Origin: Cenarchaeum sp.
Lineage (GTDB): Archaea; Thermoproteota; Nitrososphaeria; Nitrososphaerales; Nitrosopumilaceae
Assembly: GCA_963693095.2 (NCBI GenBank)
Contig: OY843768.1
Location: 128,001 to 192,000 of the forward strand
Direction of reading: 5' to 3'
Length of the DNA stretch: 64,000 nucleotides
Within the stretch, counting starts at the first letter, position 1. Every line of letters begins with the position of its first letter. Both the position numbers and the translations under genes were made by a program. Below, in pieces: positions 13,820 through 48,842 of this stretch. The notes below the pieces were generated by a model that saw only the letters and a program-made list of their open reading frames with translations, searched no databases and was not told where the DNA came from.

Positions 13820-14919
13820 TACTGCCGATCAAAAGTCCGTGCCGCATTCCAGCGACGTCCGGCCCAGGTATGCCATCACGTCGAGCCGGTACCTCGTGTG
13901 CCTGAAGTGCCGTGACACCGCCGTCCGCATATCCACCATGGTGGGGTAGTGCTCGGAGACCAGCAGCGCCCGCTTTGCCTGCCGCCACACCTCCTCGATC
14001 GCGTTGAGGTACGGCGAGCCGGTGGGCAGCTCGATCAGCCTCACCGCCCTGTGGGCGCGAAGATAGTCCTTCACCGCCGCGGCCCTGTGCTGCGGCGCCC
14101 TGTCGACGATCACGGCGACCCTGCCGAACTTCCTGTGCATGTCGCGCAGGAACGCGACAAACGTCTCCGCATCGAACCTGTCGTGCACCCGGAAGATCTG
14201 CTTCCCGTCAGTGGAGATCGCGCCGTACACCACGACCCTCCTGTGTCCCCCGGTGTACGGGGCGACGACGGGGACGCCCACGCGCGACCAGTACTTTGAT
14301 CCGTCGGCTGCGCCGTGCACGGCGATGGTCTCGTCCTGCACCACGATGGTGAATCCCGCGCGCCTGAGGCGCCTTATCTCGCGCCGCACCCGGCGCCGCC
14401 AGCCGGCGACAGTCGGCCCGTCGGCCCTGTTCACGTGCACCAGGCGCGTCCGCTTGGCGGAGAGGCCGGCCCTGCGCATTATTTTCCTGACGTGCGACAT
14501 GTGGAACCTCACGCCGGTGGCCCGCTCGATCTCCAGCATGACCTCTGCGGGCGTGACGCGCCCGGGCATTCGGCCAATCAGGCGGCCAAGCTTCTGCCGC
14601 GCGACCAGCGGCGGCCTGCCGGGGCGGGGGCGGTCCCGCAGGGCCTCGACACCGCCACTCCGGTAGCGCGCGACCCACTTGCCGACCCACCTGGGGCACT
14701 GCACGAGCGCAAGTGCGACCTCCTCGCGCGTCATCCCCAGGTTCTCGTGCATGTTGACCGCGGCAAACCTGTACCTGACGTCGCCGTCCCTCTCGTCGCG
14801 GAGTGCCCTGCGGAACGCTTCCAGCTCTTGGCCTTCCATGCGGGGCGTGGGGAGGGGCGATCCATATAGCATGCGGGTCGGGAAAGTTTGATCATGGCAC
14901 GAACTTTTGCTCGTCAGTA
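13820..14919 (-). mobile_element. IS630-family insertion sequence, about 1100 bp
   Basis: Imperfect TIRs TACTGCCGATCAAAAGTCCGTGCC and the reverse complement of TACTGACGAGCAAAAGTTCGTGCC; flanked by a TA duplication that restores a CTAG target. Confidence 0.92.
13829..14872 (-). CDS. IS630 transposase (intact single ORF)
   Basis: HTH with RPRPGRPP; DDE triad QDE / VDRAPQH / SPYLNAIEEVW; start placed at the first ATG inside the TIRs. Confidence 0.93.
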   Translation of the reverse strand: MLYGSPLPTPRMEGQELEAFRRALRDERDGDVRYRFAAVNMHENLGMTREEVALALVQCPRWVGKWVARYRSGGVEALRDRPRPGRPPLVARQKLGRLIGRMPGRVTPAEVMLEIERATGVRFHMSHVRKIMRRAGLSAKRTRLVHVNRADGPTVAGWRRRVRREIRRLRRAGFTIVVQDETIAVHGAADGSKYWSRVGVPVVAPYTGGHRRVVVYGAISTDGKQIFRVHDRFDAETFVAFLRDMHRKFGRVAVIVDRAPQHRAAAVKDYLRAHRAVRLIELPTGSPYLNAIEEVWRQAKRALLVSEHYPTMVDMRTAVSRHFRHTRYRLDVMAYLGRTSLECGTDF

Positions 14920-15050
14920 TAGCTCTTATCCTCAAACTCTTCCGGGAGCTCGGCTATGTATCATAGTCTGAGAGGGATATGCCTACGGCTGGAACGCTTA
15001 TCACGACGATCTATCCCTGATATTTCAGTAGATTGGATGTGTAATGTTTT

Positions 15051-17759
15051 TTATCGATCAGCATACTTTTTGATTATGATGTGAACATCATCTGGATCAT
15101 ACGCTACGTCCCACTCCCATTTACCAAACCTACCATCTGCATTCACTGTTTCAATCCATTCTTTCAATGCATCGTGTTTTTTTGTAGTTTGTTCATTATG
15201 TTGTCCTTTAATCTCTAAAATTAACGTGACGTTATTTTCTAGCTGGACAAGATAATCAGGATTATAATCATGAATCTCTCCTTTAAATTGATATTTCACA
15301 TTGAATCCAGATATGTAGTTTTTTACCCATGAGATGACTCTTTCATTTTTGTCTAATTCTTTGCTAGCTTGCTCTTCCCATTTATTATCGCATGGGCTAG
15401 GATTAATATGTGATTTTGTTGCGTTGACAACTTTTTTTGTAGTGTACCATGCTTGCATATCGTTAGTTGATTTTTGTTGTTTTGTGTTGCCAAAAATTAT
15501 TTTTTTATATTTTGTGTTATCAGCTCGTATGAAATCATGTATGTATATGACAATAGTTTTCATGTTGAACATGATCGCTAATTGTTTTCTTATTTTTAAC
15601 TTATCAGTTAAATTTAAAAATTTAATTTTATCTAATTCGATAAATTTCTCAACAATTTTAACAATTTGAAAAAAAAGATAGTTCTTATTTCCTGACCATT
15701 CTGGGATTGTTATATGATCATAAATATCACTTACAGTCTGGAAAATTATTGTTTGCATTCGTAATTTGTTGTAGGATTTCTGCAATGTTATCTCTGAAGC
15801 ACGACTAATGTCTAATTTTGAATCTAGCATTGGGGCTACGTGTATAGTTGTGGTGACTTTTGATCTAATCCTCAATGTTGAAACTTTTTTCCAGTTGATT
15901 TTTAAAACTGGTGTGATTATGGTTTCGATTCTAGCTATGTTTGGCCAGCTTATCTCGTGTTGAATATTGATTGGATCACACGCTATGCGTGTTTTCGTCT
16001 TTTCCTTTCGAATCTTACCTGGTGTGTTCTCATGTGGCAGAAATGAAAACGGTACTCCGAGTATATTGACATATTCTTTATCTAACAAACCAGTTTCAGG
16101 ATCTATTTCATATGATAAGCGGCGTAAACCTCTGCCTACCACTTGTTCACATAAAAGTTGACTAGTAAATGCACGTAACCCCATTATGTGAGTGACATTT
16201 TTTGCATCCCATCCTTCAGACAGCATTTGTACTGCAATAATATTCATTATTTGTTCTCCGGGTTTATCTTTTTGACCCACCGTGTTGATTATTTCACGAA
16301 TGGCATCAGTTTTAGCAGATTGTTTTTCCCCACGTTCAGATTTTAAAACACTTGTATCTATACGACACATTCTATTTTCATCTGCCAGTTCCCCAAATTT
16401 ATATATACTATTCTTAAAAAAATGTACTACTCTGGCTGATGTATGTACACTATTACACACAGTAATCATTACTGGGATTATATTTGATTTTTTCAGCTCT
16501 TTTCGTTTCATCGCCCAATCATTTCCGAGTAATATGTATGCATTACGGACTAAATCGGGTAGTGTCGTTTCGGGTTTTTTTGCGCCTTTTAGATCGCTTT
16601 TTACTTTATCATTGTCGTATATATGATAATATTTGGAACGATCTCCATACTTGAGTGATTTGCCATCATCACCTGCAGGCATACGTGGAGTTTTTACAAG
16701 GCCAGATTCTATAGCATCGTTAAGTGAAAAATCAGAAATTATCCATTTGAATAAAATATCATCGTTTGGCTTATTTTTGCTTGGAATAAACGGCGTAGCT
16801 GTAAAATCAAAGCATGTGACAATAGTTCGTGCTCTATCTAATTTATCAAGTCCTTCGATCCATAATGTGGCCATCATCTCATCCATGTTTGATTCAAAGT
16901 CTGATTGTTCTTCATAGTCATTTTTAAGTTTTCTCCAAGCATGATGTGCTTCATCATTTATCACTATTATGTTATCATAATTATGCTCCAAAATCCTTTT
17001 CGCGAATGCTTCATCGCTTTCAACTCCTCTACGAACCACACTATGAGGTTGATCTTCTGCTGGTTTCAGCGTGTGCCAATTATGAATTTTTAATTTCCCA
17101 TGTCTTAGATTTTCATACATTGAATCTGGTATTATCGAATAAAGATGGTAATAACTGTTTTCTTGATCAGGTGGCCATAGCACTTGCAGTCGTGATTTTA
17201 CAGTAAGTCCTGGAGCAACAACCACAATGTGTTTTGAAAATCTTTTATCTTGTGGGTATGACACTTTGTTTAATATTTGCCATGCGATTACCATTGCCAT
17301 TACTACTGTTTTCCCTGTCCCCGTTGCCATTTTTGAACACAATCTTTTGAACAGTCCACCATCAGTGCCTAGCCCGAGTTCCTTTTTTTCTGATTCGGGA
17401 GACTCTATCATCCAAATTATTGTTTCTATAGCTTCTAATTGACAAAAGAAAAAACGATGTGCTTGACGCATAGATGGATCGTTCCAAAACTCTAGGAGTT
17501 GCCTTGTTATTCCTGTGACCCCGGGATAACCTTTGTCTCTCCATCGATCTACTCGCTCTCTTATGATATTTACAGATTGTATAGGATAAAATGCGCCAGG
17601 ATCATCAATAGAATTGTTTTCTGGAGATGCAATTATGTATCCTGCTGGCCTCCTTTTTCCAACAATGCGTTCGGGCTTGCGTGTCTCGAGATTAAACTTC
17701 CAGTACTCTTTAGGTTTTTCATACGGGTTGCATATTATCAATTGATCGATTTCGTCCAA
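15051..17759 (-). CDS. res: Type III restriction enzyme Res subunit
   Basis: KMATGTGKT, NDEAHH, TATP, LSEGWD and QVVGRGLR motifs; C-terminal PD..EIKG nuclease motif. Confidence 0.93.
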   Translation of the reverse strand: MDEIDQLIICNPYEKPKEYWKFNLETRKPERIVGKRRPAGYIIASPENNSIDDPGAFYPIQSVNIIRERVDRWRDKGYPGVTGITRQLLEFWNDPSMRQAHRFFFCQLEAIETIIWMIESPESEKKELGLGTDGGLFKRLCSKMATGTGKTVVMAMVIAWQILNKVSYPQDKRFSKHIVVVAPGLTVKSRLQVLWPPDQENSYYHLYSIIPDSMYENLRHGKLKIHNWHTLKPAEDQPHSVVRRGVESDEAFAKRILEHNYDNIIVINDEAHHAWRKLKNDYEEQSDFESNMDEMMATLWIEGLDKLDRARTIVTCFDFTATPFIPSKNKPNDDILFKWIISDFSLNDAIESGLVKTPRMPAGDDGKSLKYGDRSKYYHIYDNDKVKSDLKGAKKPETTLPDLVRNAYILLGNDWAMKRKELKKSNIIPVMITVCNSVHTSARVVHFFKNSIYKFGELADENRMCRIDTSVLKSERGEKQSAKTDAIREIINTVGQKDKPGEQIMNIIAVQMLSEGWDAKNVTHIMGLRAFTSQLLCEQVVGRGLRRLSYEIDPETGLLDKEYVNILGVPFSFLPHENTPGKIRKEKTKTRIACDPINIQHEISWPNIARIETIITPVLKINWKKVSTLRIRSKVTTTIHVAPMLDSKLDISRASEITLQKSYNKLRMQTIIFQTVSDIYDHITIPEWSGNKNYLFFQIVKIVEKFIELDKIKFLNLTDKLKIRKQLAIMFNMKTIVIYIHDFIRADNTKYKKIIFGNTKQQKSTNDMQAWYTTKKVVNATKSHINPSPCDNKWEEQASKELDKNERVISWVKNYISGFNVKYQFKGEIHDYNPDYLVQLENNVTLILEIKGQHNEQTTKKHDALKEWIETVNADGRFGKWEWDVAYDPDDVHIIIKKYADR

Positions 17760-17762
17760 ATC

Positions 17763-20335
17763 TCATGGCTCCATAATTCGTAATGTTTCTATTCCTCTGT
17801 CATCAATTATTTTAACTGCAATTTTTTTATTTGTTCCCAATTTAAACGGTATAGATAATATTCCTGAATATTTCTCCAACAAATATTCTTCAACATATGG
17901 TTTTAATGTTTTTGCTATTTTATTCCATGAGCTTTGTACATCCAACATTGGAAAAAATACTTGTTGTGGGTATATGCTTCGCCCATCATAATCTGTATCT
18001 AACATCCACATAGCAATACGCGTTGGATCGCCGGGTTCAACCTTATTTGTTATTGTATTGTAATAATCAAACTCCTTAACCATTACTTCCCATTCATTTT
18101 TTTTCTTTTTAAGCTCCACGTCAGGTTGACCTATTAACATGAATGATTCATTTTTTATTTGTTTATTTTTTAAATCACTCGTAAACAAATCGCCATTTAT
18201 CTGAGCTTTTAATATTACAATACCGGGCCATCTGAGTTCGTCTATGTCTTTTGCTGCTTCGGGATCAAACTGCAACGCTGCAAAAATCACCATTGCGGGT
18301 TTTTCGCCTAATTTACGAACCTCTTGTATCGCATTTTCAACCTGACGTTGTTCAAGAGGTGTATGTGCTGATCCAAACGATATTAAAACAGTTTTTGTTT
18401 CCTTTTCGTTTGTTTTAGCTTTTGCATGTAACCACCTGGTTGTTGGATGTGGATCTACACTTAGAAATTTTATTTTTTGCTTGTTTTTACCAACAATTCC
18501 AGTTTTTAACAGCTCTTGGCGCCAATCAGACTGTCTTTTACTTTCGTTGTTTTCTAGATCTGATTCTTTATATTGATTAACATACATTAGATCTAATGAC
18601 TTGGACGTTGGTGATGGTACTGCCTCTACTGTGAACGGGCCTGATACTCTCGTCTTTGACGAATCTTTGTCTGGACAATCGTACAAAATTACATTGTTGG
18701 GTTCTTCATCATGTGATATTGATTTTTGAGTTATTTGTTGTATTTTTTTATATGAAAATCCAGCATCAATACCTTGGCCGGGGTTTTCTAATTTATAATA
18801 TTTATAAGTCGCAGTCATTAATCTTCTTTTTGTTAATGCAATTGCCACGCGTGATGTGTCACATGTAATCCAACGTCTCCCAAATTCTTCTGCTACGAAT
18901 GCGGTTGTCCCAGATCCGCAAGTAGGATCTAATATGAGATCACCTGGATCGCTAGTCATCAATATGAATCGACGAATTACTTTAGCTGTGGTTTGAACAA
19001 CATATATCTTGTTTTCAAATCCCCCACTACTTGTGTCATCCCACATATTCTGGAGTTCGGCGTATTCAAAATCATTGAAATAGCGCACATATGATAACCT
19101 GTTACCATTTTTCATAATTCGATTTTTTGTGATCAAGTATTTCATGCCTTTAAGTGATGCCTTCCAATGACTATGCTGACCAGGTGTGAACACTTCACCG
19201 TCAAATATGAGAGAATCGTCACTCTTTGACTTGCCCGGAGATGTTGTGGCAGCAAGCCTATAAATTTTTGATTCTGATGGTATGCTAAGTGGGTTATCTC
19301 TTTGCTCCTTTGTCATTCTTATACGTTCGCCCTCTTTTAATTCTAAATATTTGTAATTCGGATCGTTGATGGGCAATTCTTTTTTTGTATACAGTTTGTG
19401 AGATTTTAACAGTTTTTTATTTTTTGCATACCATACAATATAATCAAACACCACTGAAATATGCGTACTTGTAGAATTTGATGTTTTTCTAAATGAGATC
19501 ACGCTTACAAAATTCTCATACCCAAACACTTCATCCATTATTATGCGTACATAATGCAAATTATCATCAGAAATTTGTACCCCACAACTTCCAGTTTCAT
19601 TTAATAGCTCTTTTGCTAAAATTAACCGATCGCGCAAGTATCCCAAGTATGAATGAATTCCATGCTTCCATGTGTCTCTAAATGCTGTCACCATTTCTGG
19701 TTCCTGTGTGAGATCATCATCATTACGATCTTTAACATTCATTTTATTTACAAACGGTTGAAAGTTTGACTTATATTCAATACCGTATGGCGGATCTATG
19801 TATATTGTTTGAATTTTTCCTGCAAAATTTTCTTTTTGTAATAGGGAGTTCATAACTAACAGAGAATCTCCGGCAATTAATCGATTTGACCAATTATGTG
19901 AATGTTGATAAAATTGCAATGCTTCTCGTAACGGAAGATTGTATTCATCATGATCAAAATGAAGGGTAATTTTTTGTTGGATGTGAGTCTCTGGCTTCAG
20001 AATTTTATCAATAATTGTTATAGGATCAATACGTTCATGTTGATGTAGCGACACTGTATCGATTTCAAAATTTCCATCTTTTTGCTTCTCAAACCAGACT
20101 AATACCGGGTCTAAATGAGGGTCATATTCGTATTTGGTTGGATCATGATCACGATCTGTGTTGGGATCAACAAGCCCTACGGGTGGGTTATTTGGTCGTG
20201 CGCTACTGTGATAATACTGCTGAATGCGTTCTCGTAGCTTGGGTTCTGACTTTGATGCTTTTGTGGCTTTATTTTTTGACTTTTTGCTGGGGGGGGGGGT
20301 CGTCGTGTTCCTATTTTCGTTTTAGTCAACGGCAT
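17763..20335 (-). CDS. mod: Type III DNA methyltransferase Mod, frameshifted at a C11 tract (putatively phase-variable)
   Basis: IYIDPPYG and DPTCGSGTT motifs; the frame stays open upstream of the 20054 GTG (YYH..RPNNPPVGLV..YEYDPHLDP) as far as the poly-C; the ATG at 20335 is in frame only with C9 or C12. Confidence 0.88.
20289..20299. repeat. G11/C11 homopolymer tract in the 5' coding region of mod
   Basis: Eleven consecutive G on the + strand inside an AT-rich island. Confidence 0.9.
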
Positions 20336-24372: not shown

Positions 24373-25669
24373 CGGGCCAGCCCTTTAGCGACATCCCGTC
24401 ATAGACGCTATAGTCAGAGTGGCCGCCAAACATGGCGTGGTCGAGCCTTCGCTCTAGGCGCGTGTCTATTATGGCGATATCTGCGTCGAATCCGGCCTCG
24501 ATTGGGCCCTTTTGCGGCGAGAGCGCAAATATGCGCTCGGCGTTTGCGCTAGTCAGCTCGGCGAGGCGGTTCAGCGTGAGCCTTCCGCGGTTGAGTCCCT
24601 CGCTCAGCAAAAGCGGGAGCGATGCGCCAATGCCGGGAAATCCGGCAAGCGCGCCCCACACGTCGCTGCCTGCGAGCTTTGCGTCGCGCGTGTTGGCGAC
24701 GTGGTCGGTCCCTATCGTGTCTATCTCGCCTTTTGCGATGGCGTTCCAGACGGCATCAACGTCAGACTGCGAGCGCACCGGTGGCATGACCTTTGCGAGG
24801 TATCCATCGCGGCCCTCGTGCGAGAGCGCAAGATAGTGCGGGCACGTCTCGACATGTATGCGCGTCCCGCGCGACCTCTCGAGGCGGATCTGCTCGAGCG
24901 CGCGCGCCGAGCCCACATGCACAAAGTACATCGTGCAGCCGTGGCGCCTTGCCATCTCGCAGACGCGCGCAATTGCTGCGGCCTCGTACTCGGGCGAGCG
25001 GCTCTCTGACCACGCGCGCAGGCCGTCGTTGCCGGCCGCACGCGACTCGCGCATCGAGCACGCGCATGACTCATAGTCCTCGGCATGAACGCAGACTGGC
25101 AGGCCGGTCCGCGAGGCCTTTTTGACCACCTTGTCGACTAGCGCGTCGGTGACCTCGACGTCGGCCATCTGTGGTGCGCCGGCCCCGGGATCGAGATCCA
25201 TGTGAACGTGGCCAATCTCGCCGCCGAGGTTCATGTAGACCTTGAAGGACGATATTCCGGTGACTGCCGTCTCGTACATCTCCTCGGCCTGCGCGTCATT
25301 GAATATCGAGGCGTGGACTCCATAGTCGATGTGGTGGGCCTTTGCGCTCGCCTCGAGCTGGGGGCCAAGTGAGCTCGAATAGGGGTCGACCCTGCGCAGC
25401 ATGCGCATCATTGTCGTCACGCCGCCGATGGCAGCAGCATGCGACTCGGTCGCCGCAGCCCTGTCTATGGGCGTGTACACGCCATAGTGGACGTGCGTGT
25501 CTATGGCGCCCGGAAGCGAGACTAGGCCGTCGGCCCTAATGCGCGTCTCGCACGCCGGCTCGTCGGCCGTGACTGCGGTGACCTTGCCGCCGTCTATGAC
25601 GATGTTGCGGTCCATGACGCCCTTTGGCGTGATGACGTGCGAGCCCGTTATGACCATGTCGTGTGCCAC
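24281..25669 (-). CDS. Dihydroorotase/hydantoinase-family cyclic amidohydrolase
   Basis: LPGAIDTHVH, GGVTT, VHAE, ETCPHYL, PPVR and IGTDH motifs. Confidence 0.88.
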   Translation of the reverse strand: MAHDMVITGSHVITPKGVMDRNIVIDGGKVTAVTADEPACETRIRADGLVSLPGAIDTHVHYGVYTPIDRAAATESHAAAIGGVTTMMRMLRRVDPYSSSLGPQLEASAKAHHIDYGVHASIFNDAQAEEMYETAVTGISSFKVYMNLGGEIGHVHMDLDPGAGAPQMADVEVTDALVDKVVKKASRTGLPVCVHAEDYESCACSMRESRAAGNDGLRAWSESRSPEYEAAAIARVCEMARRHGCTMYFVHVGSARALEQIRLERSRGTRIHVETCPHYLALSHEGRDGYLAKVMPPVRSQSDVDAVWNAIAKGEIDTIGTDHVANTRDAKLAGSDVWGALAGFPGIGASLPLLLSEGLNRGRLTLNRLAELTSANAERIFALSPQKGPIEAGFDADIAIIDTRLERRLDHAMFGGHSDYSVYDGMSLKGWPVKTIVRGVLVADGSEVVGPAGHGRLVSPLQ

Positions 25670-25839
25670 TGTGGCGCCCGCCTGCGCCTGCGTCTCTATA
25701 TTCCTTTTAGGCCGTGGGCGCGCCTGTGGGGCGCCCTGCGGCTTTTGTGCCTAATTCCCCGCCACGGGTGGCGATTGGGCACAGTTGCAATGGCAATCTT
25801 CATATAATGTTGGTATATGCCATCCCGCCGTTGGAATTC

Positions 25840-26001
25840 ATGGTGACAAGAAGGATTGTAAGCGGCGGACGGTCTGCTAGGCGTGGTGTCGGTGCCGTGC
25901 GCGCAGGCGAGGCCGTGTATGGCCGCCACGTCAAGGCGTGGCGCGCCATAGCGGACAGGGCGCTGGCCAAAATAGGCTGCACGGCGGGGGCGAGGCCCTA
26001 A
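25840..26001 (+). CDS. Small hypothetical protein B1 (RHVKAWR motif)
   Basis: TATA-like sequence about 25 bp upstream; stop overlaps the next ATG (TAATG). Confidence 0.55.
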   Translation: MVTRRIVSGGRSARRGVGAVRAGEAVYGRHVKAWRAIADRALAKIGCTAGARP

Positions 26002-26249
26002 TGACCGAGACGATCACGCGCAGGCGCCCGCGGGTCACGTACCATCCCGACCAGGTGAGGCGCGGCAAGGACATACTCGCCTCGATGCCCGAGAAGGAGC
26101 GCGAGTGGTACCTCGCCAAGGTCAGGGACGGCACGTTCACGCTCGCCGAGACGCATGGTATGCTCGCCGTGGGCGAGTCCATGAGGCTCGGCCGCGAGGA
26201 GGGCACAAGGCGCCGCAACGTGCGCGTGGGCCTGGAGGCGCTGTCCTGA
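26001..26249 (+). CDS. Small hypothetical protein A1 (paralogue family)
   Basis: RPRVTY..DQVRRGK.I...M...EREWY...GLEALS; similar to 26877..27113. Confidence 0.75.
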   Translation: MTETITRRRPRVTYHPDQVRRGKDILASMPEKEREWYLAKVRDGTFTLAETHGMLAVGESMRLGREEGTRRRNVRVGLEALS

Positions 26250-26398
26250 TGGCCGCAAAGCTGGCGCGCGTGTGCTCGCACTGCCACGGCACCAGGCACG
26301 GTGAGTCAGTGGGCACGCTCAAGGGCGGCTTTCACTGGGTGCATCATATGTGCCTGACCGGCTACCTCACCGACCACCCGGAGGCGGTCGAGACGTGA
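26249..26398 (+). CDS. Small Cys/His-rich (Zn-finger-like) protein Z1
   Basis: CSHC...HWVHHMC; TGATG and GTGA coupling to its neighbours. Confidence 0.65.
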   Translation: MAAKLARVCSHCHGTRHGESVGTLKGGFHWVHHMCLTGYLTDHPEAVET

Positions 26399-26646
26399 CC
26401 CACCTGCCACCCACCACCAGGGAGAGGAATTTCCCCAGGGTAAAGTGGCCCGAGCAGGACCCCGAGGCCGTGAGGCGCGGCAGGGAGGTGCTCGCGCGAC
26501 TGCCGCCCGAGGAGCGCGAGGGGATCATCGATGACGCCAGGACAAACGGCGAGCCCGAGGACGTGATGCTCGCCTCGCTGTACGCCGCGTCCCGCCTGCA
26601 CGAGGCGCTCAACCCCGGCGAGGCCGGGCGGGAGGCCAAGCAATGA
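26395..26646 (+). CDS. Small hypothetical protein A2 (divergent paralogue)
   Basis: FPRVKW..DPEAVRRGREVLARLPPEERE; GTGA/ATGA coupling. Confidence 0.7.
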   Translation: MTHLPPTTRERNFPRVKWPEQDPEAVRRGREVLARLPPEEREGIIDDARTNGEPEDVMLASLYAASRLHEALNPGEAGREAKQ

Positions 26647-26876
26647 CCAACGGCGCCGAGTCCGTGGAGGAGCTGAACCCAAAGCTCGTCCCCGTCAGGG
26701 GCGACGACGACCTCATCGGTGGCGAGGGCACCGCCATGCACCACCGGTGCAGGATATATGGCTGCAGCTCAACGTGGCCGGTCGGCGACGCAAAGGCTTA
26801 CGACATCATCTACGGCCGGTGGTGGTGCCAGTCGCACGTGCCGGGCGCAGAGCACACCAGGGAGGTGTTGCACTAG
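26643..26876 (+). CDS. Small Cys/His-rich (Zn-finger-like) protein Z2
   Basis: CRIYGC...WWCQSH; translationally coupled. Confidence 0.65.
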   Translation: MTNGAESVEELNPKLVPVRGDDDLIGGEGTAMHHRCRIYGCSSTWPVGDAKAYDIIYGRWWCQSHVPGAEHTREVLH

Positions 26877-27113
26877 ATGGCGGGAACGGCGCAGGTGCGC
26901 CAAAGGCCACGGATCATATACGACTCCGACGTGGTGAGGCACGGCAAGGCCATCTTTGACAGGATGACCGATGATGAGCAGGAGTGGTACCGTCGCAGCC
27001 TCGCCCATGGCCTCACGCTCGACGACGTGTACGGCTCACTCGCCGTGACCGAGGCCATAGCCCGCGGCAACGCGGGACGCAGCGTGCGCGAGGGTCTGGA
27101 GGCGATCTCCTGA
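26877..27113 (+). CDS. Small hypothetical protein A3 (paralogue family)
   Basis: RPRIIY..DVVRHGK.I...M...EQEWY...GLEAIS. Confidence 0.75.
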   Translation: MAGTAQVRQRPRIIYDSDVVRHGKAIFDRMTDDEQEWYRRSLAHGLTLDDVYGSLAVTEAIARGNAGRSVREGLEAIS

Positions 27114-27114
27114 C

Positions 27115-27336
27115 ATGGTGAACTGCAACTGTGGCAACGGTTCGGCTCCGCACAAGGTGTGGTGCGCCATCCGCGCCGGACAGCGCGAGAGGCGTGTGAC
27201 GCAGGCAGTGCGTCCCGAGAAAAAGATGACAAAGGCGCAAAAGCGGCTCGCAGACCATGACCGGCACGTCAAGGCGTGGCGCGAGGTAGTCGAGAGGGTG
27301 CGCAACAACCTGGACAGCAATGCAGAAAAGTCCTAG
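27115..27336 (+). CDS. Small hypothetical protein B2 (CNC..H..WC plus RHVKAWR)
   Basis: Starts 1 bp after the A3 stop; shares a motif with B1. Confidence 0.65.
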   Translation: MVNCNCGNGSAPHKVWCAIRAGQRERRVTQAVRPEKKMTKAQKRLADHDRHVKAWREVVERVRNNLDSNAEKS

Positions 27337-27471
27337 ACGGCCATCATGGCCAGCCTGCGTGATTGACTGCCTGTCAGATCACCGCGAGGCCAAAAAGGAC
27401 GAAACGGGGGCGAGAATGTCGCCCCATGCGCGCGCCCAAGATCGCAGACATGACAACAGTGATATAATCAT

Positions 27472-28068
27472 GTGAGACTCTGTGGCCTGTTGAATAAAAC
27501 ACGTGCCGATCCATTATCCGTCCCAGAGTCACTCCTTGCCGCCTCCATGCGCAATGTGCCGCATCGGGGCGCGTTGCCCCTCACTCCGGATATCTTTCCG
27601 CCGATCCCTCAGAGCCGCCCCAAGAAGATCCGCAAAAAGTCAGCCTTGCCAACACCTGACATCGCCTCGTCTATCCTTGCCGCCTCCATGCGCAATGTGC
27701 CGCATCGGGGCGTCCCTCCGTTCACGGTAGCCTCGTATATGTCACGGCAGCAGCACCCCTCTGGGAATCTGCCTGGTAAACCAATGGTGCCCTCCTCACG
27801 CTTTGACACGGTGGACACTAGCACGGCAAACTCCGTGTCCATTGAGGAATCGCATGGGCGAGGCCGCGTCGCGGCCAATTCGTTCTCCAAGGGAATCGTT
27901 TTCCTGATCGCCGCGGCGCTTTTCATCTATCTGGTCTACCGTAAATACCGCCGTCATCGTGTAGAACGTCAAAAACGCCGTGAGCTGAGCATTCTCAAGA
28001 ACGAGCGCCGTGCAGGACGCCAAGAGCTCAAAACGCGCAAATCAAAGAGCCGCAAACAGCGGAAATGA
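27472..28068 (+). CDS. Hypothetical membrane protein with basic C-terminal tail
   Basis: Single TM (GIVFLIAAALFIYLVY) followed by a K/R-rich tail; start uncertain. Confidence 0.5.
   Translation: MRLCGLLNKTRADPLSVPESLLAASMRNVPHRGALPLTPDIFPPIPQSRPKKIRKKSALPTPDIASSILAASMRNVPHRGVPPFTVASYMSRQQHPSGNLPGKPMVPSSRFDTVDTSTANSVSIEESHGRGRVAANSFSKGIVFLIAAALFIYLVYRKYRRHRVERQKRRELSILKNERRAGRQELKTRKSKSRKQRK
27533..27712 (+). repeat. 39-bp direct repeat TCCTTGCCGCCTCCATGCGCAATGTGCCGCATCGGGGCG, two copies
   Basis: Identical copies at 27533-27571 and 27674-27712; degenerate core near 28429-28450. Confidence 0.85.
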
Positions 28069-28129
28069 CGGCAATGCCACCGTATGCAACGCGCCCTTGC
28101 CAATCACCCTGGTGCGGCGCACGCACCCT

Positions 28130-28414
28130 ATGTTCGCGGCTGGATGGTTGCATTTGAGCTATCATTGGGGCGCGCCGGTACAGGATCACCCTGTAACATC
28201 GTACATATGGGAAGAGTTTTTCTGGGTCACGTTTGATGTCACGACATGGCTGATCCTCCTCATCGTCGTTGGGATCAGCGCGCGATTTGTGCGGATCAGT
28301 GTGCGCGAGCGCCGCGTGTCCGAGGGCACAGAGGACATTTCACGGGGAATGGAAGAGAACATTCGCGACATTCTGCGCGAGACCTATCTGTTCCTGTTTC
28401 CGTGGACCAGATGA
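28130..28414 (+). CDS. Small hypothetical membrane protein
   Basis: TM segment TWLILLIVVGISA within ORF 28010..28414; start uncertain. Confidence 0.45.
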   Translation: MFAAGWLHLSYHWGAPVQDHPVTSYIWEEFFWVTFDVTTWLILLIVVGISARFVRISVRERRVSEGTEDISRGMEENIRDILRETYLFLFPWTR

Positions 28415-28453
28415 CGCCGGCGCCCTGCTGCGCAATGTGGCGCACCGCGCGCA

Positions 28454-29392
28454 CTAGGTGATGATGACTGCTGACATGGCGGGGTCAATGGATGCCCCCA
28501 TGGCATAGCGCGCGCCAATCCTGCACTCGCCGCCACTGTTGCCAATGATGACCTCTAGGGTGCTCAGTGCCACGCTGACCGAGCCCCTTGCGGCAACGAG
28601 CACGCTGTCCCAGCCCGTGCCCGCCGCGTCCCCAAACGCGGGGCTCACCACCACGCTCACCCCGTCGACCTCCATCTCTCCGGCCCACAGGTCATTGCTG
28701 TCAAACAGCAGCCTTGCCTGCCTTGGGGAGGCCACGCAGAACAGCCCGTGCGGAAACCTCGTGCCGTGGTTGGCGTCAGCTATTGCCCGTGCGGCCCTTA
28801 GGACATCGGCGCCCTCTAGCGCGCCGCTCTCGCCGACATCACGGGTTCTCCTCTTGTCGTCCATGCGCAGCGTCCTTGCGAGCATTGGCCCGTCTGAGCG
28901 AATCAGGCTGGAGCGAACCGCGCGCTCGACGTCGAGGAGAACCTCGTCACGTATGGACGCGAGCATGTCGCGCGCCACGTTGGAGCCGTCCTCAGCCAGG
29001 GCATCCTGGCTGACATTGTGCCATATGCCCTCCTGCACGGAGAACTCGGTCTCCACGACACGGTGCGTCCTCGTGCCGGCCTTGACCCCGAGCGCCTCGC
29101 GCGTCCTGTGCGGGGCACCGAGGGCTATGCGACCATGCGTTCCGTCGGCGTTCACGCCCACCTCAGTCACGCTGGCATGGTCGATCACCGAGTCGCGTGC
29201 CGTGGGCATTATGCGCCCAATGGGAACCTGCCACGAGACGGCGCCTCCCTCGCCGAGCTCCCCGGCCCCATCGCCGAGTATGCCCCTGACGGCAGGCCAC
29301 ATGGGCTCGCCGCTCCTGAACGCGCCTGTGATCGAGTAGCATATTGCGTCCCATCCTGCGCTACTGTCATCCTGTCCCTCCATTGCGGACAC
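28454..29392 (-). CDS. Putative HK97-fold capsid-like protein
   Basis: 312 aa; VSQDALAED..NV..DM...IRDEV..DVERA (spine-helix-like), DVLRAARAI..AN..LFCVASPRQ..LL, DGVSVVVS and C-terminal RY.MGA.IDP...AVI pattern. Confidence 0.55.
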   Translation of the reverse strand: MSAMEGQDDSSAGWDAICYSITGAFRSGEPMWPAVRGILGDGAGELGEGGAVSWQVPIGRIMPTARDSVIDHASVTEVGVNADGTHGRIALGAPHRTREALGVKAGTRTHRVVETEFSVQEGIWHNVSQDALAEDGSNVARDMLASIRDEVLLDVERAVRSSLIRSDGPMLARTLRMDDKRRTRDVGESGALEGADVLRAARAIADANHGTRFPHGLFCVASPRQARLLFDSNDLWAGEMEVDGVSVVVSPAFGDAAGTGWDSVLVAARGSVSVALSTLEVIIGNSGGECRIGARYAMGASIDPAMSAVIIT

Positions 29393-29498
29393 TGCGCACG
29401 GGGCATATTTGAACCATGGCCGCAGCTCTGGCGCGCAACGCCGTGCGCACGATGCGGGGTAAATGGTTAAAAGAAGCGCACCCTCGCCGGCTGCGCAC

Positions 29499-29573
29499 GG
29501 GCCAGTGGTTTAGTGGTATAATGCCGCGTTCGCAACGCGGAAGTCAGGGGTTCAATTCCCCTCTGGTCCACCA
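29499..29573 (+). tRNA. tRNA-Ala(CGC)
   Basis: GGGCCAG/CTGGTCC acceptor stem, anticodon arm CCGCG-TTCGCAA-CGCGG, GGTTCAATTCC T-loop, encoded CCA. Confidence 0.95.
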
Positions 29574-29585
29574 CATGATCTACGC

Positions 29586-30983
29586 CTAGGCGCCGGCTGC
29601 GCACCTGTTCGGACCGGCCTCGAGGTCGGGGATCATTGCGGGGTTTAGCGGCATCGAGCCGCGATTGAAGCGGATTATCATCGAATAGTTTGGCGGCTTT
29701 GGCGGGATCGATGCCGTCACCCTCTTGACAAACTCTGCCCTCTCGGCACCATAGAGCTCGCCTGACTTTAGCGCACCGACGCCGATGCCGTACGAGCCGT
29801 CTGGCGACGGCGTGGCGTCCTCTGACCTGTGTGACGGGAGTATGAGCGTGCCCTCGGGCAGCGCGCCGAGCCTCGAGTGGATTGTGTCATGCAGCTCGCC
29901 GGCGGCGGACTCGGCGTCCTCGTGGAGGTCAGGCCTCCCGACACCGCCGGCAAACGCCGTGTCGCCGCAGAACGCAAGGCTTTCGGTGACATATGCCATG
30001 CTGCCCGGCGTGTGGCCCGGCACGCGCATCGCGCGCAGCTCGCCCTCGCCAAACCGTATCGCATCACCGTCGCCAATGCGCTCGCACTCTATGTCGTATT
30101 TCTCGCCGGCGCTAAGGTAGAGCTTTGCGCCAGTCGATGCCGCAAGCTCCCTTGATGCCGATATGTGGTCTGCGTGGCAGTGCGTGTCGGCGACTGCGAC
30201 GATCTCGGCTCCGGCGTCAGCGGCAATCCTCGCGTACGCGCCGACGGGGTGCACTGCGTCGATGACTGCGGCCTTGGCCCCGCTTGCGACAATGTACGAG
30301 AGGCAGCCCTTGCCGACCTTTTCGACCTGGATGACCTCCACGCTGCCACTCGATATCTTTTTGGGGACAAGAACCTGGCTCCAGCCGGCCATGCCGCCGT
30401 CAAGTGACGTCGACTCTATGCCGTTTCGCGCAAGCGCAAACGTGGCGACCATTGAGCGGTTGCCATGCGAGCATATCGTGACGACCTTTTTGTCCCTCGG
30501 TATGGCATCACACGCGCCCTTTTCAAAGAGCTTTGCCAGCGGCACGTTGACTGCGCCGTCGATCATGTGGGCCGCGCACTCGTCAGGCTCCCTGACATCG
30601 AGGAGAAACACGTCACTGCGGCTCTGCCAGAGCTCGTCACCGGAGATGAGCGGGCTGTGCGAGCCCTTTACGGTCTGGCCTGCCCAGCCGGCCATGCCGC
30701 CCTCGAGGTGGTGCGCGTCGATGCCAAACTGGGCCATCATGCCGGCGTTGCGAGACGACTCTGCCCCGTCGGCGTCGATGAGGACCACCTTTGAGCCGCG
30801 CGGCATCTTTGCCATGATGATCTGCTTTTGCTGCATCGAGCCGCAGCGCGCGTTGGCCGCGCCCCTCACGTGGCCGGCCACATAGTCGTCAGCAGGCCGC
30901 ATGTCGAGTATCATCGTGCCGTCGCCTGCGGCGATGATCGACTCTAGGTCGCCTGCGCTGATTCCCGTGCCCATTGCGGGCAT
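29586..30983 (-). CDS. Double rhodanese plus MBL-fold hydrolase (persulfide dioxygenase-like) fusion
   Basis: LDMRP..Y..GH, LDVREP..E, ICSHGNRS, THCHADH and PGHTPGS motifs. Confidence 0.9.
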   Translation of the reverse strand: MPAMGTGISAGDLESIIAAGDGTMILDMRPADDYVAGHVRGAANARCGSMQQKQIIMAKMPRGSKVVLIDADGAESSRNAGMMAQFGIDAHHLEGGMAGWAGQTVKGSHSPLISGDELWQSRSDVFLLDVREPDECAAHMIDGAVNVPLAKLFEKGACDAIPRDKKVVTICSHGNRSMVATFALARNGIESTSLDGGMAGWSQVLVPKKISSGSVEVIQVEKVGKGCLSYIVASGAKAAVIDAVHPVGAYARIAADAGAEIVAVADTHCHADHISASRELAASTGAKLYLSAGEKYDIECERIGDGDAIRFGEGELRAMRVPGHTPGSMAYVTESLAFCGDTAFAGGVGRPDLHEDAESAAGELHDTIHSRLGALPEGTLILPSHRSEDATPSPDGSYGIGVGALKSGELYGAERAEFVKRVTASIPPKPPNYSMIIRFNRGSMPLNPAMIPDLEAGPNRCAAGA

Positions 30984-31131
30984 GGCGATTCATGCCAAAT
31001 TTAGCGTTTTGCCATGGGCTGCCTGTGGCTTGACGGTATGCGCACACGCGTGCCTGTCCGGGGCCGTCGGCACCGTGCGTGCGCGCGGCTGCGGCGACAC
31101 GATTTTACAAGGCGCAGCCCGTGCGCGCCCC

Positions 31132-32298
31132 ATGCGGCCCGCGCATGTCCTCCTCGTGCTGGCGATCCTGGTGATCCCGTGCGCAGCGTCTGCGCAGATC
31201 ATCTCGCCGGGCGACCCCGTCGAGCCCCCGCGGGGCCAGCAGGGCACGCCTGGCCTTATCCCCGATCCGGTCGGGCGCACCGGCGCACTCTTGCCGACGC
31301 CGACCCCGCAGGGAGGCGCACAGGACGGCCCTGCGGCGCAGGGCCTCTGGGTCTCGCACGCGCGCATGTCAGTCGCGCGCTCTGAGGTCGCCGTCGTCGC
31401 AGTCGATGACACGGTCTACGTTATCGCCGGACTCGACGCTGACGGCCGCGCGACGCGCACGCTGGAGGCATACGACACTGTGTCTGGAACGTGGAGCACG
31501 CGCGCACCGGCCCCCGATGCGCTGCACCATGCGGCCGCCGCGACTGATGGTGCGCTAGTCTATGTCGTTGGCGGATACACGCCCTTTGGCATTCCGTCAT
31601 CATCGCTATACGTGTATGATCCGCTCGATGACTCGTGGTCGTCCGGCCCAAACATGCCAACTGCGCGCGGGGCGCTCGCCGCCGCGTTTGTTGGCACGAG
31701 CCTGTATGCGCTTGGCGGTGCGGCATACGGCAGGGCACTTGACACCGCCGAGGTGTATGACACGTCGACGGGAACGTGGGACACGATCGCGCCCATGCCG
31801 ACTGCACGCGACCATCTTGCGGCAGCCACACTTGACGCGCGCGTGCATGCGATCGGCGGGCGCAACATATCGCTCTCATCGAACACCGGTGCGCACGAGG
31901 CGTACAGTGCGGCACTCGGAGCCTGGGAGGAGCTAGACGGCCTGCCCACGCCGCGCGGCGGGCTGGCCGCAGCGTCCATCGGCGGCAGCATATTTGTCAT
32001 CGGCGGCGAGCAGACGCTCGGGACGTTTGCGCACAACGAGCACTATGTACCCGGCACCGGATGGGCAGCCGCCGAGGACATGCCGACTGCAAGGCACGGA
32101 CTCGGTGCGGCGGCAGCCGGCGAGCGCATATACGCCATGGCCGGCGGCATAGAGCCCGGCGGGGGCGTGAGCGGCCTGGCCGAGTCGTACCGTGACCCCG
32201 TTCACGTGCCCGAGTTTGGCGCAGTTGCGGCAACCATGGCCGTCGCGCTAGGGGCCGCCGCCGCCGCCGGCGCGCTCACTCGCCGAGCACCCCGATGA
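31132..32298 (+). CDS. Secreted Kelch-repeat protein with PEFG-CTERM sorting signal
   Basis: Signal peptide, about six GG..YD..W..MPTAR Kelch repeats, VPEFG then TM then basic tail. Confidence 0.88.
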   Translation: MRPAHVLLVLAILVIPCAASAQIISPGDPVEPPRGQQGTPGLIPDPVGRTGALLPTPTPQGGAQDGPAAQGLWVSHARMSVARSEVAVVAVDDTVYVIAGLDADGRATRTLEAYDTVSGTWSTRAPAPDALHHAAAATDGALVYVVGGYTPFGIPSSSLYVYDPLDDSWSSGPNMPTARGALAAAFVGTSLYALGGAAYGRALDTAEVYDTSTGTWDTIAPMPTARDHLAAATLDARVHAIGGRNISLSSNTGAHEAYSAALGAWEELDGLPTPRGGLAAASIGGSIFVIGGEQTLGTFAHNEHYVPGTGWAAAEDMPTARHGLGAAAAGERIYAMAGGIEPGGGVSGLAESYRDPVHVPEFGAVAATMAVALGAAAAAGALTRRAPR

Positions 32299-48191: not shown

Positions 48192-48842
48192 ATGGTCTGG
48201 CTAAGACGCTGTACGCACTACCTCTTCATCGTGGTAGTTGCCGTCAACTCCACACTGCTGACAATCAACGCAGGAGACTATATCTTCTACACTGATTGGG
48301 CGTGGACGTCGTTCGTGGTATTCTCAATATCGCAGACGCTCATGCTCGTCGTCGGTGCGGCGTACTACCTGACATTCACTGGAGTGCCGGGAACTGCGAC
48401 GTACTATGCGCTGATAATGACAGTCTACACGTGGATAGCAAAGGGCGCATGGTTTGCCCTCGGCTACCCGTATGACTTCATCGTCACGCCGGTATGGCTC
48501 CCATCTGCAATGCTGATGGACCTTGCATACTGGGCGACAAAGAAGAACAAGCACTCGCTGATTCTGTTTGGTGGTGTGTTGGCCGGCATGTCGTTGCCAC
48601 TGTTCAACATGGTGAACCTGATAACGGTGGCCGACCCGCTGGAGACCGCGTTCAAGTACCCGCGACCCACACTTCCCCCCTACATGACACCAATAGAACC
48701 GCAGGTGGGCAAGTTCTACAATAGCCCAGTCGCACTGGGCGCTGGAGCCGGGGCCGTGCTGTCCGTGACTATGGCCGCGTTGGGCTGCAAGCTCAACACG
48801 TGGACATATCGCTGGATGGCCGCCTGGTCGAAATGGGACTGA
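48192..48842 (+). CDS. amoA: Ammonia monooxygenase subunit A (archaeal)
   Basis: 216 aa, MVWLRRCTHYLF...AGDYIFYTDWAWTS...WMAAWSKWD. Confidence 0.99.
   Translation: MVWLRRCTHYLFIVVVAVNSTLLTINAGDYIFYTDWAWTSFVVFSISQTLMLVVGAAYYLTFTGVPGTATYYALIMTVYTWIAKGAWFALGYPYDFIVTPVWLPSAMLMDLAYWATKKNKHSLILFGGVLAGMSLPLFNMVNLITVADPLETAFKYPRPTLPPYMTPIEPQVGKFYNSPVALGAGAGAVLSVTMAALGCKLNTWTYRWMAAWSKWD

Follow-up and report, generated by a model that had tools for sequence, protein, structure and literature searches.

Why would an ammonia-oxidizing archaeon carry a gene for a virus capsid protein with no other virion gene beside it? The question is raised by an open reading frame (ORF) in a 64,000-nt stretch of Cenarchaeum sp. 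(contig OY843768.1, positions 128,001 to 192,000; here, the window) that belongs to a genome, labeled G000, of 99.6% completeness. The host is an ammonia oxidizer, as the window contains the archaeal amoA gene (48237-48785). We call the ORF MCP-A and its paralogues MCP-B and MCP-C (types A, B, and C), names coined in this analysis. MCP-A is very probably a stand-alone, complete HK97 major capsid gene that stems from a protease-capsid fusion in tailed viruses infecting related ammonia oxidizers, of which it keeps the capsid half, and that is carried on a 2.1-kb strain-variable cassette at a tRNA-Ala hot spot. To our knowledge, stand-alone cellular genes with the HK97 fold have so far been read as either encapsulins or prophage debris. 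The family described here fits neither class cleanly because it combines viral ancestry with a lack of cargo or virion partners, a uniformly trimmed architecture, and a strain-variable or defense-associated setting.

Fold and solitude of MCP-A

Sequence searches with MCP-A gave 0 families in Pfam and 0 in PHROGs, no significant match in the PDB (best E value, 0.44), and 0 matches in a profile search. AlphaFold2 (AF2) run on the single sequence produced an unusable model, with a predicted local distance difference test score (pLDDT) of 37, and on a 17-row alignment of the family it produced a model with a pLDDT of 79.9 and a predicted template modeling score (pTM) of 0.82. This model has a long beta-hairpin at residues 84-128 (84-91 and 110-128) and a 27-residue helix at residues 139-165; from the secondary-structure string, we read the former as the E-loop and the latter as the spine helix. 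Foldseek matched the model to 373 PDB chains at an E value of <= 0.001, with capsids at the top (the Rhodobacter capsulatus gene transfer agent [RcGTA], 6tb9; E = 6e-11), and to 273 viral models at the same threshold, with Caudovirales capsid proteins first (E = 1e-14). In VIA-align, Z scores were 15.3 to the LME-1 phage capsid (9eg4_A; root mean square deviation [rmsd], 4.2; 226 aligned residues), 14.9 to the capsid of EcCI2, a capsid-forming phage-inducible chromosomal island (cf-PICI) (rmsd, 9.8), 14.4 to the RcGTA capsid, 13.2 to HK97 (2frp_G), and 12.3 to 6x8m (rmsd, 9.5), the structure compared for encapsulin Family 2. Residues 11-312 align with whole capsid chains, and the model has no extra domain. 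Judged by the model, it is beyond reasonable doubt that the fold of MCP-A is the complete HK97 capsid fold. As far as the model goes, the structure scores do not tell phage capsids from encapsulins, which reach Z scores of 13.2 (9i8e_A), 13.1 (8vjo_C), and 13.0 (2e0z_A).

The gene is solitary, as are its close copies. G000 carries types A and B, and a congener, G004, carries types B and C; all four loci lack a recognizable virion neighbor in searches with Pfam (including scans of 18 and of 21 neighboring proteins), PHROGs, and hhalign. PHROGs returned 0 families for 17 of 17 neighbor proteins, and when ten neighbor families were compared with eleven virion proteins by hhalign, the probability was below 1% in 110 of 110 comparisons. 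The neighboring genes differ among all four loci. Around MCP-A, the Pfam-scanned ORFs between 12797 and 44699 (about 15 kb around the gene) include no portal, terminase, protease, or integrase. They encode mostly housekeeping functions (UbiA, formyltransferase, creatininase, LSm, RpiA, amidohydrolase, a rhodanese-metallo-beta-lactamase [rhodanese-MBL] fusion, geranylgeranyl reductase, S3Ae, and SerRS), together with a Kelch protein, a MoxR/VWA pair, one DDE_3 transposase, and a Type III restriction-modification pair. Across the G000 genome, tblastn with the virion proteins of related viruses found no match, nor were there matches to Terminase_6N, TerL_ATPase, or Phage_capsid (PF05065); a Portal_Mu search was uninformative for G000, as it matched no control genome.

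These results agree closely with an earlier note on this locus, made from the sequence alone, which had described an intact 312-aa ORF with an HK97-like motif pattern. The ORF listing (28454-29392, minus strand) bears out the intact frame, and the combined evidence of the family-alignment model, Foldseek, and VIA-align bears out the HK97 fold; the sequence collections searched held no match against which the motif pattern itself could be compared. The note was also right that the gene is an orphan with no portal, terminase, protease, or integrase nearby, that it is divergent from tRNA-Ala, and that its neighbors are an array of micro-ORFs, two small membrane ORFs (one hydrophobic segment each), and the rhodanese-MBL gene past the tRNA.

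One explanation that the note offered is an encapsulin-like shell, which would self-assemble and enclose a cargo enzyme. The comparison is apt in that encapsulins of Families 1 to 4, as presented in PMC8346489 (Andreas & Giessen 2021), are likewise stand-alone cellular HK97-fold genes of viral descent without a scaffold or protease, and they are thought, according to the relevant statements in PMC8346489 and PMC8987985, to have been derived from domesticated capsid genes; the Z scores of ~13 to several encapsulins also fit. None of the four families outlined in PMC8346489, however, matches MCP-A. Family 1 is described there as having a PF04454 shell with cargo that bears a targeting peptide and is encoded alongside; PF04454 (Linocin_M18) is unmatched by MCP-A and by 17 family members, the neighbors of MCP-A are small orphan ORFs and a tRNA, and the 27-residue spine helix and the hairpin appear closer to phage capsids than to the compact shape that this source portrays for Family 1. 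Family 2, which the same source characterizes by a conserved cargo operon (cysteine desulfurase, terpene cyclase, and others) and often by an insert that binds cyclic nucleotide monophosphates, has no counterpart, as no such neighbor occurs at the four loci and the model shows no extra domain. Family 3 is given as a PF05065-like shell within a peptide natural-product cluster, and there is no PF05065 match for MCP-A or in the genome and no biosynthetic gene nearby. Family 4, summarized there as a truncated protein (PF08967) that retains the A-domain alone and shares a two-gene operon with an enzyme, differs from MCP-A, which is modeled at full length and does not match PF08967 (DUF1884).

The earlier note had hinted that the rhodanese-MBL gene might encode a sulfur enzyme that goes with a shell of this kind. 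This is not supported. G004 keeps the enzyme in the same place with 99% amino acid identity and has no MCP-A there, which makes the sulfur link a coincidence of position. Presence or absence between strains and a defense-island setting would also be odd for a metabolic organelle. With no cargo, no conserved neighbor gene at any of the four loci, and no match to an encapsulin Pfam family, we regard an encapsulin-like shell as improbable.

Viral ancestry of the family

A HMMER search over 1.84 billion protein representatives found only 20 relatives of MCP-A at an E value of <= 0.001. The alignment of 17 full-length relatives has 10 invariant columns, and among 22 aligned full-length members the length ranges from 285 to 376 aa, with a typical size of ~310 aa and every frame open. 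Types A, B, and C and the metagenomic members are all intact and similar in size, at 25-43% identity. Long-term maintenance of the family thus appears clearer, from these sequences, than recent constraint. Five or more members are on contigs of >100 kb and are therefore chromosomal. Judging from equal contig sizes and the tree only, the members P0004 and P0012 may lie on one contig, as may P0008 and P0010, each pair joining a C-clade member to a non-C member as in G004.

We ran the family profile over sampled genome sets, which overlap. Matches were found in 2 of 61 genomes in the set of relatives (G000 and G004), 2 of 401 in the family set, 4 of 401 in the class set, and 6 of 401 in the order set. 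The additional matches come from four metagenome-assembled genomes (MAGs), G056, G508, G051, and G622, which belong to other families of the same order as G000; these matches are weak (E values of 5e-15 to 3e-5) and lie in longer ORFs.

All four of these distant relatives outside the genus are located in tailed-virus modules. In G056, the match is a 709-aa ORF between a Portal_Mu gene and genes for the connector, tail terminator, tail tube, and neck. In G051 and G622, hmmsearch places the matching ORFs after portal homologues and before connector homologues, and the G508 locus ends at a contig edge but is syntenic with G056, so that a portal was directly seen in G056, G051, and G622. When the family profile was aligned to the 709-aa ORF by hhalign, the probability was 97.5% (E = 7.2e-12; 308 columns), with family positions 11-319 pairing with residues 365-708, the capsid half. 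The N terminus of the same ORF shares 40.6% identity with a protein of provirus Pro-Nvie1 (Nvie-Pro1 below) that is annotated as "protease/major capsid protein" and that PMC6563490, citing Krupovic et al. 2011, refers to as a protease-capsid fusion. On the basis of these profile alignments, the family corresponds to the mature capsid domain found in tailed viruses that infect related archaea, minus the protease/scaffold half.

MCP-A shares its fold with Nvie-Pro1-type capsids, whose hosts belong to the same order as G000, and the homology of its family to the viral protein in G056 extends across the entire capsid domain. The differences lie in architecture and context. The orphan family consists of the capsid half only (~310 aa), whereas the viral fusions are 403-709 aa long, and unlike these viruses, MCP-A has no adjoining portal, terminase, connector, or tail gene. 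The same holds for HK97 major capsid proteins of Duplodnaviria in general: MCP-A has the fold and the homology to a bona fide tailed-virus capsid but no morphogenesis module.

A scan of viral contigs (IMG/VR) with MCP-A, P0003, and P0006 found no match, at a sensitivity that detects close relatives only, so that it is weak evidence that viruses lack the family; tblastn against 50,697 phage records found none. A scan of genome contigs for close relatives gave none apart from a chance match in a Rhizobacter MAG, and a scan of metagenome contigs gave one locus (L010), unmatched by the family hidden Markov model. Longer, fused forms of the family were not found by profile search, which is weak evidence.

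HK97 capsids also occur outside complete viruses in cf-PICIs and gene transfer agents, and RcGTA and a cf-PICI are among the top structural matches of MCP-A. A cf-PICI has an integrase, a replication module, and its own head and packaging genes on an island of ~10-15 kb. No hallmark gene of a cf-PICI was found in the 2.1-kb segment or in the 3.8-kb hot spot around it; cf-PICIs and gene transfer agents carry whole head or packaging modules, whereas MCP-A stands alone. It is also conceivable that MCP-A is the capsid gene of an unrecognized small element or satellite that borrows its other functions from a helper virus. [quoted passage not shown] Neither the segment nor the DNA up to 15 kb away contains an integrase, replication, or packaging gene, the searches of the G000 genome turned up no helper provirus, the neighbors differ at all four loci, and at least five members are on chromosome-sized contigs. 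A satellite is accordingly quite unlikely.

Strain variability, defense setting, and possible role

G004 is collinear with the window on both sides of the cassette at 93-97% nucleotide identity, with blastn breaks at 27343 and 29433; it lacks the segment and has ~318 other bases in its place. Both forms coexist in run X1. The empty form is represented by one contig that joins 27326 to 29433 (depth, 130.7), and the filled form is represented by a 1,802-bp contig that covers 27683-29484 with 0 differences (depth, 70.7). Runs X5, X6, and X7, from other studies, contribute further short pieces that match the segment letter for letter, making runs of four studies altogether, and there were no variants within the capsid gene among the run contigs. 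The whole interval from the amidohydrolase gene to tRNA-Ala is an insertion hot spot, because in a more distant congener, G003, the tRNA and amidohydrolase genes are ~70 bp apart with nothing in between. The tRNA-Ala gene is present in both G004 and G003. At the segment edges, att-like repeats of the tRNA were limited to 14-nt matches, which may be due to chance.

Types B and C are found among defense genes. The MCP-B genes of G000 and G004 are ~90% identical to each other, and that of G000 forms a 1.4-kb block (91.6% identity) within an island whose blocks are reshuffled relative to G004. A DUF4145/PD-T7-4-like gene (E = 5e-16) is found 233 nt away from it. All three PD-T7-4-like genes of G000 (1.917-1.946 Mb) and all three of its strong Old-like genes (1.926-1.948 Mb) fall in the stretch that holds MCP-B. 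MCP-C of G004, 28% identical to MCP-A, is 19 kb from MCP-B in that genome, in a 5.6-kb G004-only segment that adjoins an insertion sequence (IS)-like repeat; it is flanked by an AbiJ/PDC-S32 gene and a GmrSD/HEC-06 gene. Among the B and C neighbors as a whole, PADLOC matches were to PD-T7-4, Old/GajA, PDC-S32, and HEC-06, and Pfam identified TPR proteins, DUF4145, OLD-type nucleases, AbiJ, and GmrSD.

Several features of these islands were noted in passing. In the mosaic island of G000 (C1:1,906,000-1,948,000; loci L005 and L006), unannotated families of 444 aa, 339-392 aa, and ~160 aa are repeated and interleaved with TPR, Old/GajA-like, and PD-T7-4-like genes. Another unannotated family, with proteins of 374 aa (L006:593-1717, G000) and 317 aa (L008:14550-15503, G004) at 28% identity (E = 1e-24), is encoded near MCP-B and directly and divergently beside MCP-C, with a fragment beside MCP-B of G004; its placement makes it a possible partner of the capsid-like genes. 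PDB sequence searches with two neighbor proteins returned noise only. A 1.09-kb repeat at L008:12555-13648 (G004:C1:1622555-1623648), of which G000 has several copies (C1 and C2) at 83-98% identity, overlaps a 400-aa ORF without a Pfam, PHROG, or PADLOC match and may be an unclassified insertion sequence.

We compared the MCP-B genes of G000 and G004 by the Nei-Gojobori method. The ratio of nonsynonymous to synonymous substitution rates (dN/dS) was 0.79 for the long ORF and 0.71 over 311 codons. The comparison genes had lower ratios, with 0.23 and 0.40 in two genes of the island and 0.16 and 0.05 in those flanking MCP-A. The ratio is uneven along the gene: 1.11 for codons 1-40 and 0.49 for codons 41-311, the latter below neutrality (P = 0.042). 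Nearly half of the replacements (14 of 29) fall within the first 39 residues, and replacements concentrate in columns that vary within the family (P = 0.012 by a Mann-Whitney test).

The reading that we favor, with a probability of roughly 0.35, is that the host keeps MCP-A as a virus-conflict gene whose product is a decoy subunit that spoils the procapsid assembly of related tailed viruses. It is favored because the protease/scaffold half is uniformly lost, the gene is solitary everywhere, each genome holds a small repertoire of paralogues, strains differ in presence and absence, types B and C reside in defense islands, and the N-terminal arm changes fast. The protein would be made without the viral protease/scaffold half and, when a related tailed virus infects, would join or cap its procapsids as they grow and ruin their assembly. 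It would thus behave as a dominant-negative decoy, like the capsid-derived restriction factors of animals, with the fast-changing N-terminal arm perhaps setting the target virus. Expression, self- or co-assembly, and a protective effect are what we infer here. Mouse Fv1 and sheep enJS56A1 are captured viral capsid genes that block related viruses and have fast-evolving specificity regions; they have a retroviral Gag fold and belong to another domain of life, so that the analogy is functional only. A broader version, in which the captured capsid family is a form of archaeal innate immunity with a strain-variable A/B/C repertoire and N-terminal arms that track their targets, as an Fv1-type counterpart, seems unlikely.

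Defenses that block virion assembly exist in bacteria, where PMC11364771 describes Tai and Tab. The proposed mode, stopping virus assembly, is the same, and these systems too are placed in variable immunity hot spots in that account. They act on tails and, in the sections of PMC11364771 that concern them, are not described as homologues of virion proteins, whereas MCP-A is a capsid homologue in an archaeal host, with a role that is proposed only.

Several observations weigh against a virus-conflict role. MCP-A matches 0 families in PADLOC-DB 2.0, and it is not in a defense island, the closest defense genes being the Type III restriction-modification pair ~8.4 kb away. We know of no virus that infects this host, and compared directly with the published Nvie-Pro1 capsid, the family gives a nonsignificant probability of 11.5%. 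The literature search, which extended over the accessible portions of the papers, returned no prokaryotic precedent for a capsid-protein homologue that serves as a decoy. Over the whole gene, dN/dS in MCP-B is not distinguishable from 1 (P = 0.14 by a binomial test), and in neutral simulations with the 48 observed substitutions the frame stays open in 25%, so that recent constraint on the gene looks weak from its sequence. Defense islands and tRNA-flanking hot spots also gather the debris of mobile elements.

The last two points, weak recent constraint and the gathering of debris, keep a strong rival in place: MCP-A may be the last remnant of a degraded provirus or mobile element, a capsid gene drifting without function. 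This explanation would account for the location in a tRNA-adjacent hot spot of insertion with small orphan ORFs alongside, for presence/absence polymorphism between close strains, and for the reshuffled MCP-B island and the IS-like repeat near MCP-C. The dN/dS values of 0.71-0.79 are also in keeping with it, and an open frame would be unsurprising. It fits less well with three divergent types, each intact, solitary, and trimmed to the same mature-capsid domain, with all members seen at ~310 aa and no trace of the protease half or another virion gene at any copy. MCP-B has moreover been retained in two species despite rearranged flanks, and its replacements avoid conserved columns. The GC content at third codon positions (GC3) of MCP-A is host-like (0.79, which ranks at the 86th percentile among 681 long ORFs of the host, whose median is 0.74), and the letter-identical pieces from four studies likewise speak against decay. 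In our judgment, a functionless remnant is only slightly less probable than the virus-conflict role.

The earlier note had set three readings side by side, a co-opted nanocompartment, a capsid-interfering satellite gene, and a provirus remnant. Viral descent, solitude, strain-level presence and absence, and the placement of two of the three types in defense islands shift the weight to virus-host conflict or decay and away from a metabolic compartment; none of the three is proved.

If functional, the family would show either that capsid genes can be domesticated by a new route or that cargo-less shells of a new kind exist, and it would be the first capsid-homologue defense candidate in archaea. 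The viruses and immunity of ammonia oxidizers are poorly known. If the genes are debris, they record past infection of the lineage by Nvie-Pro1-like tailed viruses, and even then the family provides a sequence profile for a capsid clade missed by Pfam and PHROGs.

Other features of the window locus

The coordinates of the features are collected in Table 1. For MCP-A, a GTG codon at 29392 would give a product of 312 aa and the in-frame ATG at 29383 one of 309 aa. The ATG is the likelier start because the protein recorded for the contig (P0021) has 309 aa, the N termini of relatives match, and an AAATAT box lies upstream; P0001 likewise has 309 aa. This box, ~25 nt 5' of the ATG and within the strain-specific segment, is a possible archaeal TATA box, in which case the mRNA would be leaderless.

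Table 1. Features of the MCP-A locus and related loci (window numbering unless a contig or locus is named)
Feature	Position	Strand	Basis or remark
MCP-A, solitary HK97-fold capsid-protein gene	28454..29383	-	ORF call, AF2 model, structure matches
AAATAT, possible archaeal TATA box	29405..29410	-	Read by eye
Strain-variable segment, 2,106 bp, with MCP-A and two small ORFs	27327..29432		blastn versus G004, alignment, run contigs
Insertion hot spot, amidohydrolase gene to tRNA-Ala	25670..29498		3.8 kb here, ~1.1 kb in G004, ~70 bp in G003
tRNA-Ala(CGC), right edge of hot spot	29499..29573	+	ARAGORN; Rfam RF00005, 67 bits
ORF of 198 aa (173 aa from ATG 27547), convergent with MCP-A, coding status unsure	27472..28068	+	ORF list
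ORF of 134 aa (94 aa from ATG 28130), one hydrophobic segment, coding status unsure	28010..28414	+	ORF list
Two 44-nt direct repeats, 95% alike, inside the 198-aa ORF	27528-27571, 27669-27712	+	Repeat families D2, D4
Small-ORF array, five ORFs of 73-103 aa	25938..27336	+	ORF list, repeat family D1
MCP-B in G000	C1:1918024-1918959		43% identical to MCP-A
Nvie-Pro1-like modules (portal, protease-capsid fusion, connectors, tail tube)	L027, G056:C27; L028, G508:C28; L033, G051:C99; L034, G622:C222		

The two small ORFs that share the segment with MCP-A have GC3 values of 0.655 (198 aa) and 0.674 (134 aa), both under the host median. The 198-aa ORF has one hydrophobic segment and a basic tail with 21 K/R in the last 45 residues; it has no Pfam, PHROG, or PADLOC match except a sub-threshold one to OPA3, and the 134-aa ORF has none in the same three collections. 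A third, partial copy (19 nt) of the direct repeats lies at 28429-28447, just beyond the MCP-A stop codon, and the genome has no other occurrence of the 19-nt core when <=2 mismatches are allowed.

To the left of the segment, the small-ORF array includes paralogues at 25938-26249, 26350-26646, and 26877-27113, with no Pfam match above threshold and no PHROG match. The array is partly common to G004, and its copy number varies among coexisting strains, with joints 26251->27120 and 26393->27148 present in runs X1 and X5. More broadly, across window positions 25000-30200, run X1 contains G000-like and G004-like populations, at word depths of ~70 and 130-230, respectively, that differ by hot-spot indels.

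Beyond the tRNA, a 465-aa Kelch-repeat protein with a signal-like N terminus is encoded at 30901-32298, with the rhodanese-MBL gene on one side and the VWA/MoxR pair on the other. As the rhodanese-MBL gene of G003 directly precedes the VWA homologue, the Kelch gene is an insertion in the G000 lineage. On the other side of MCP-A, the GC content drops to 0.34-0.38, versus ~0.65 in the surroundings, at 15051-20054 (and at 13829-14935). This low-GC island encodes a Type III restriction enzyme (902 aa) and a methyltransferase (763 aa), with an IS630-like DDE_3 transposase gene beside it. By its composition, the island looks like a recent horizontal acquisition, and it is common to G004.

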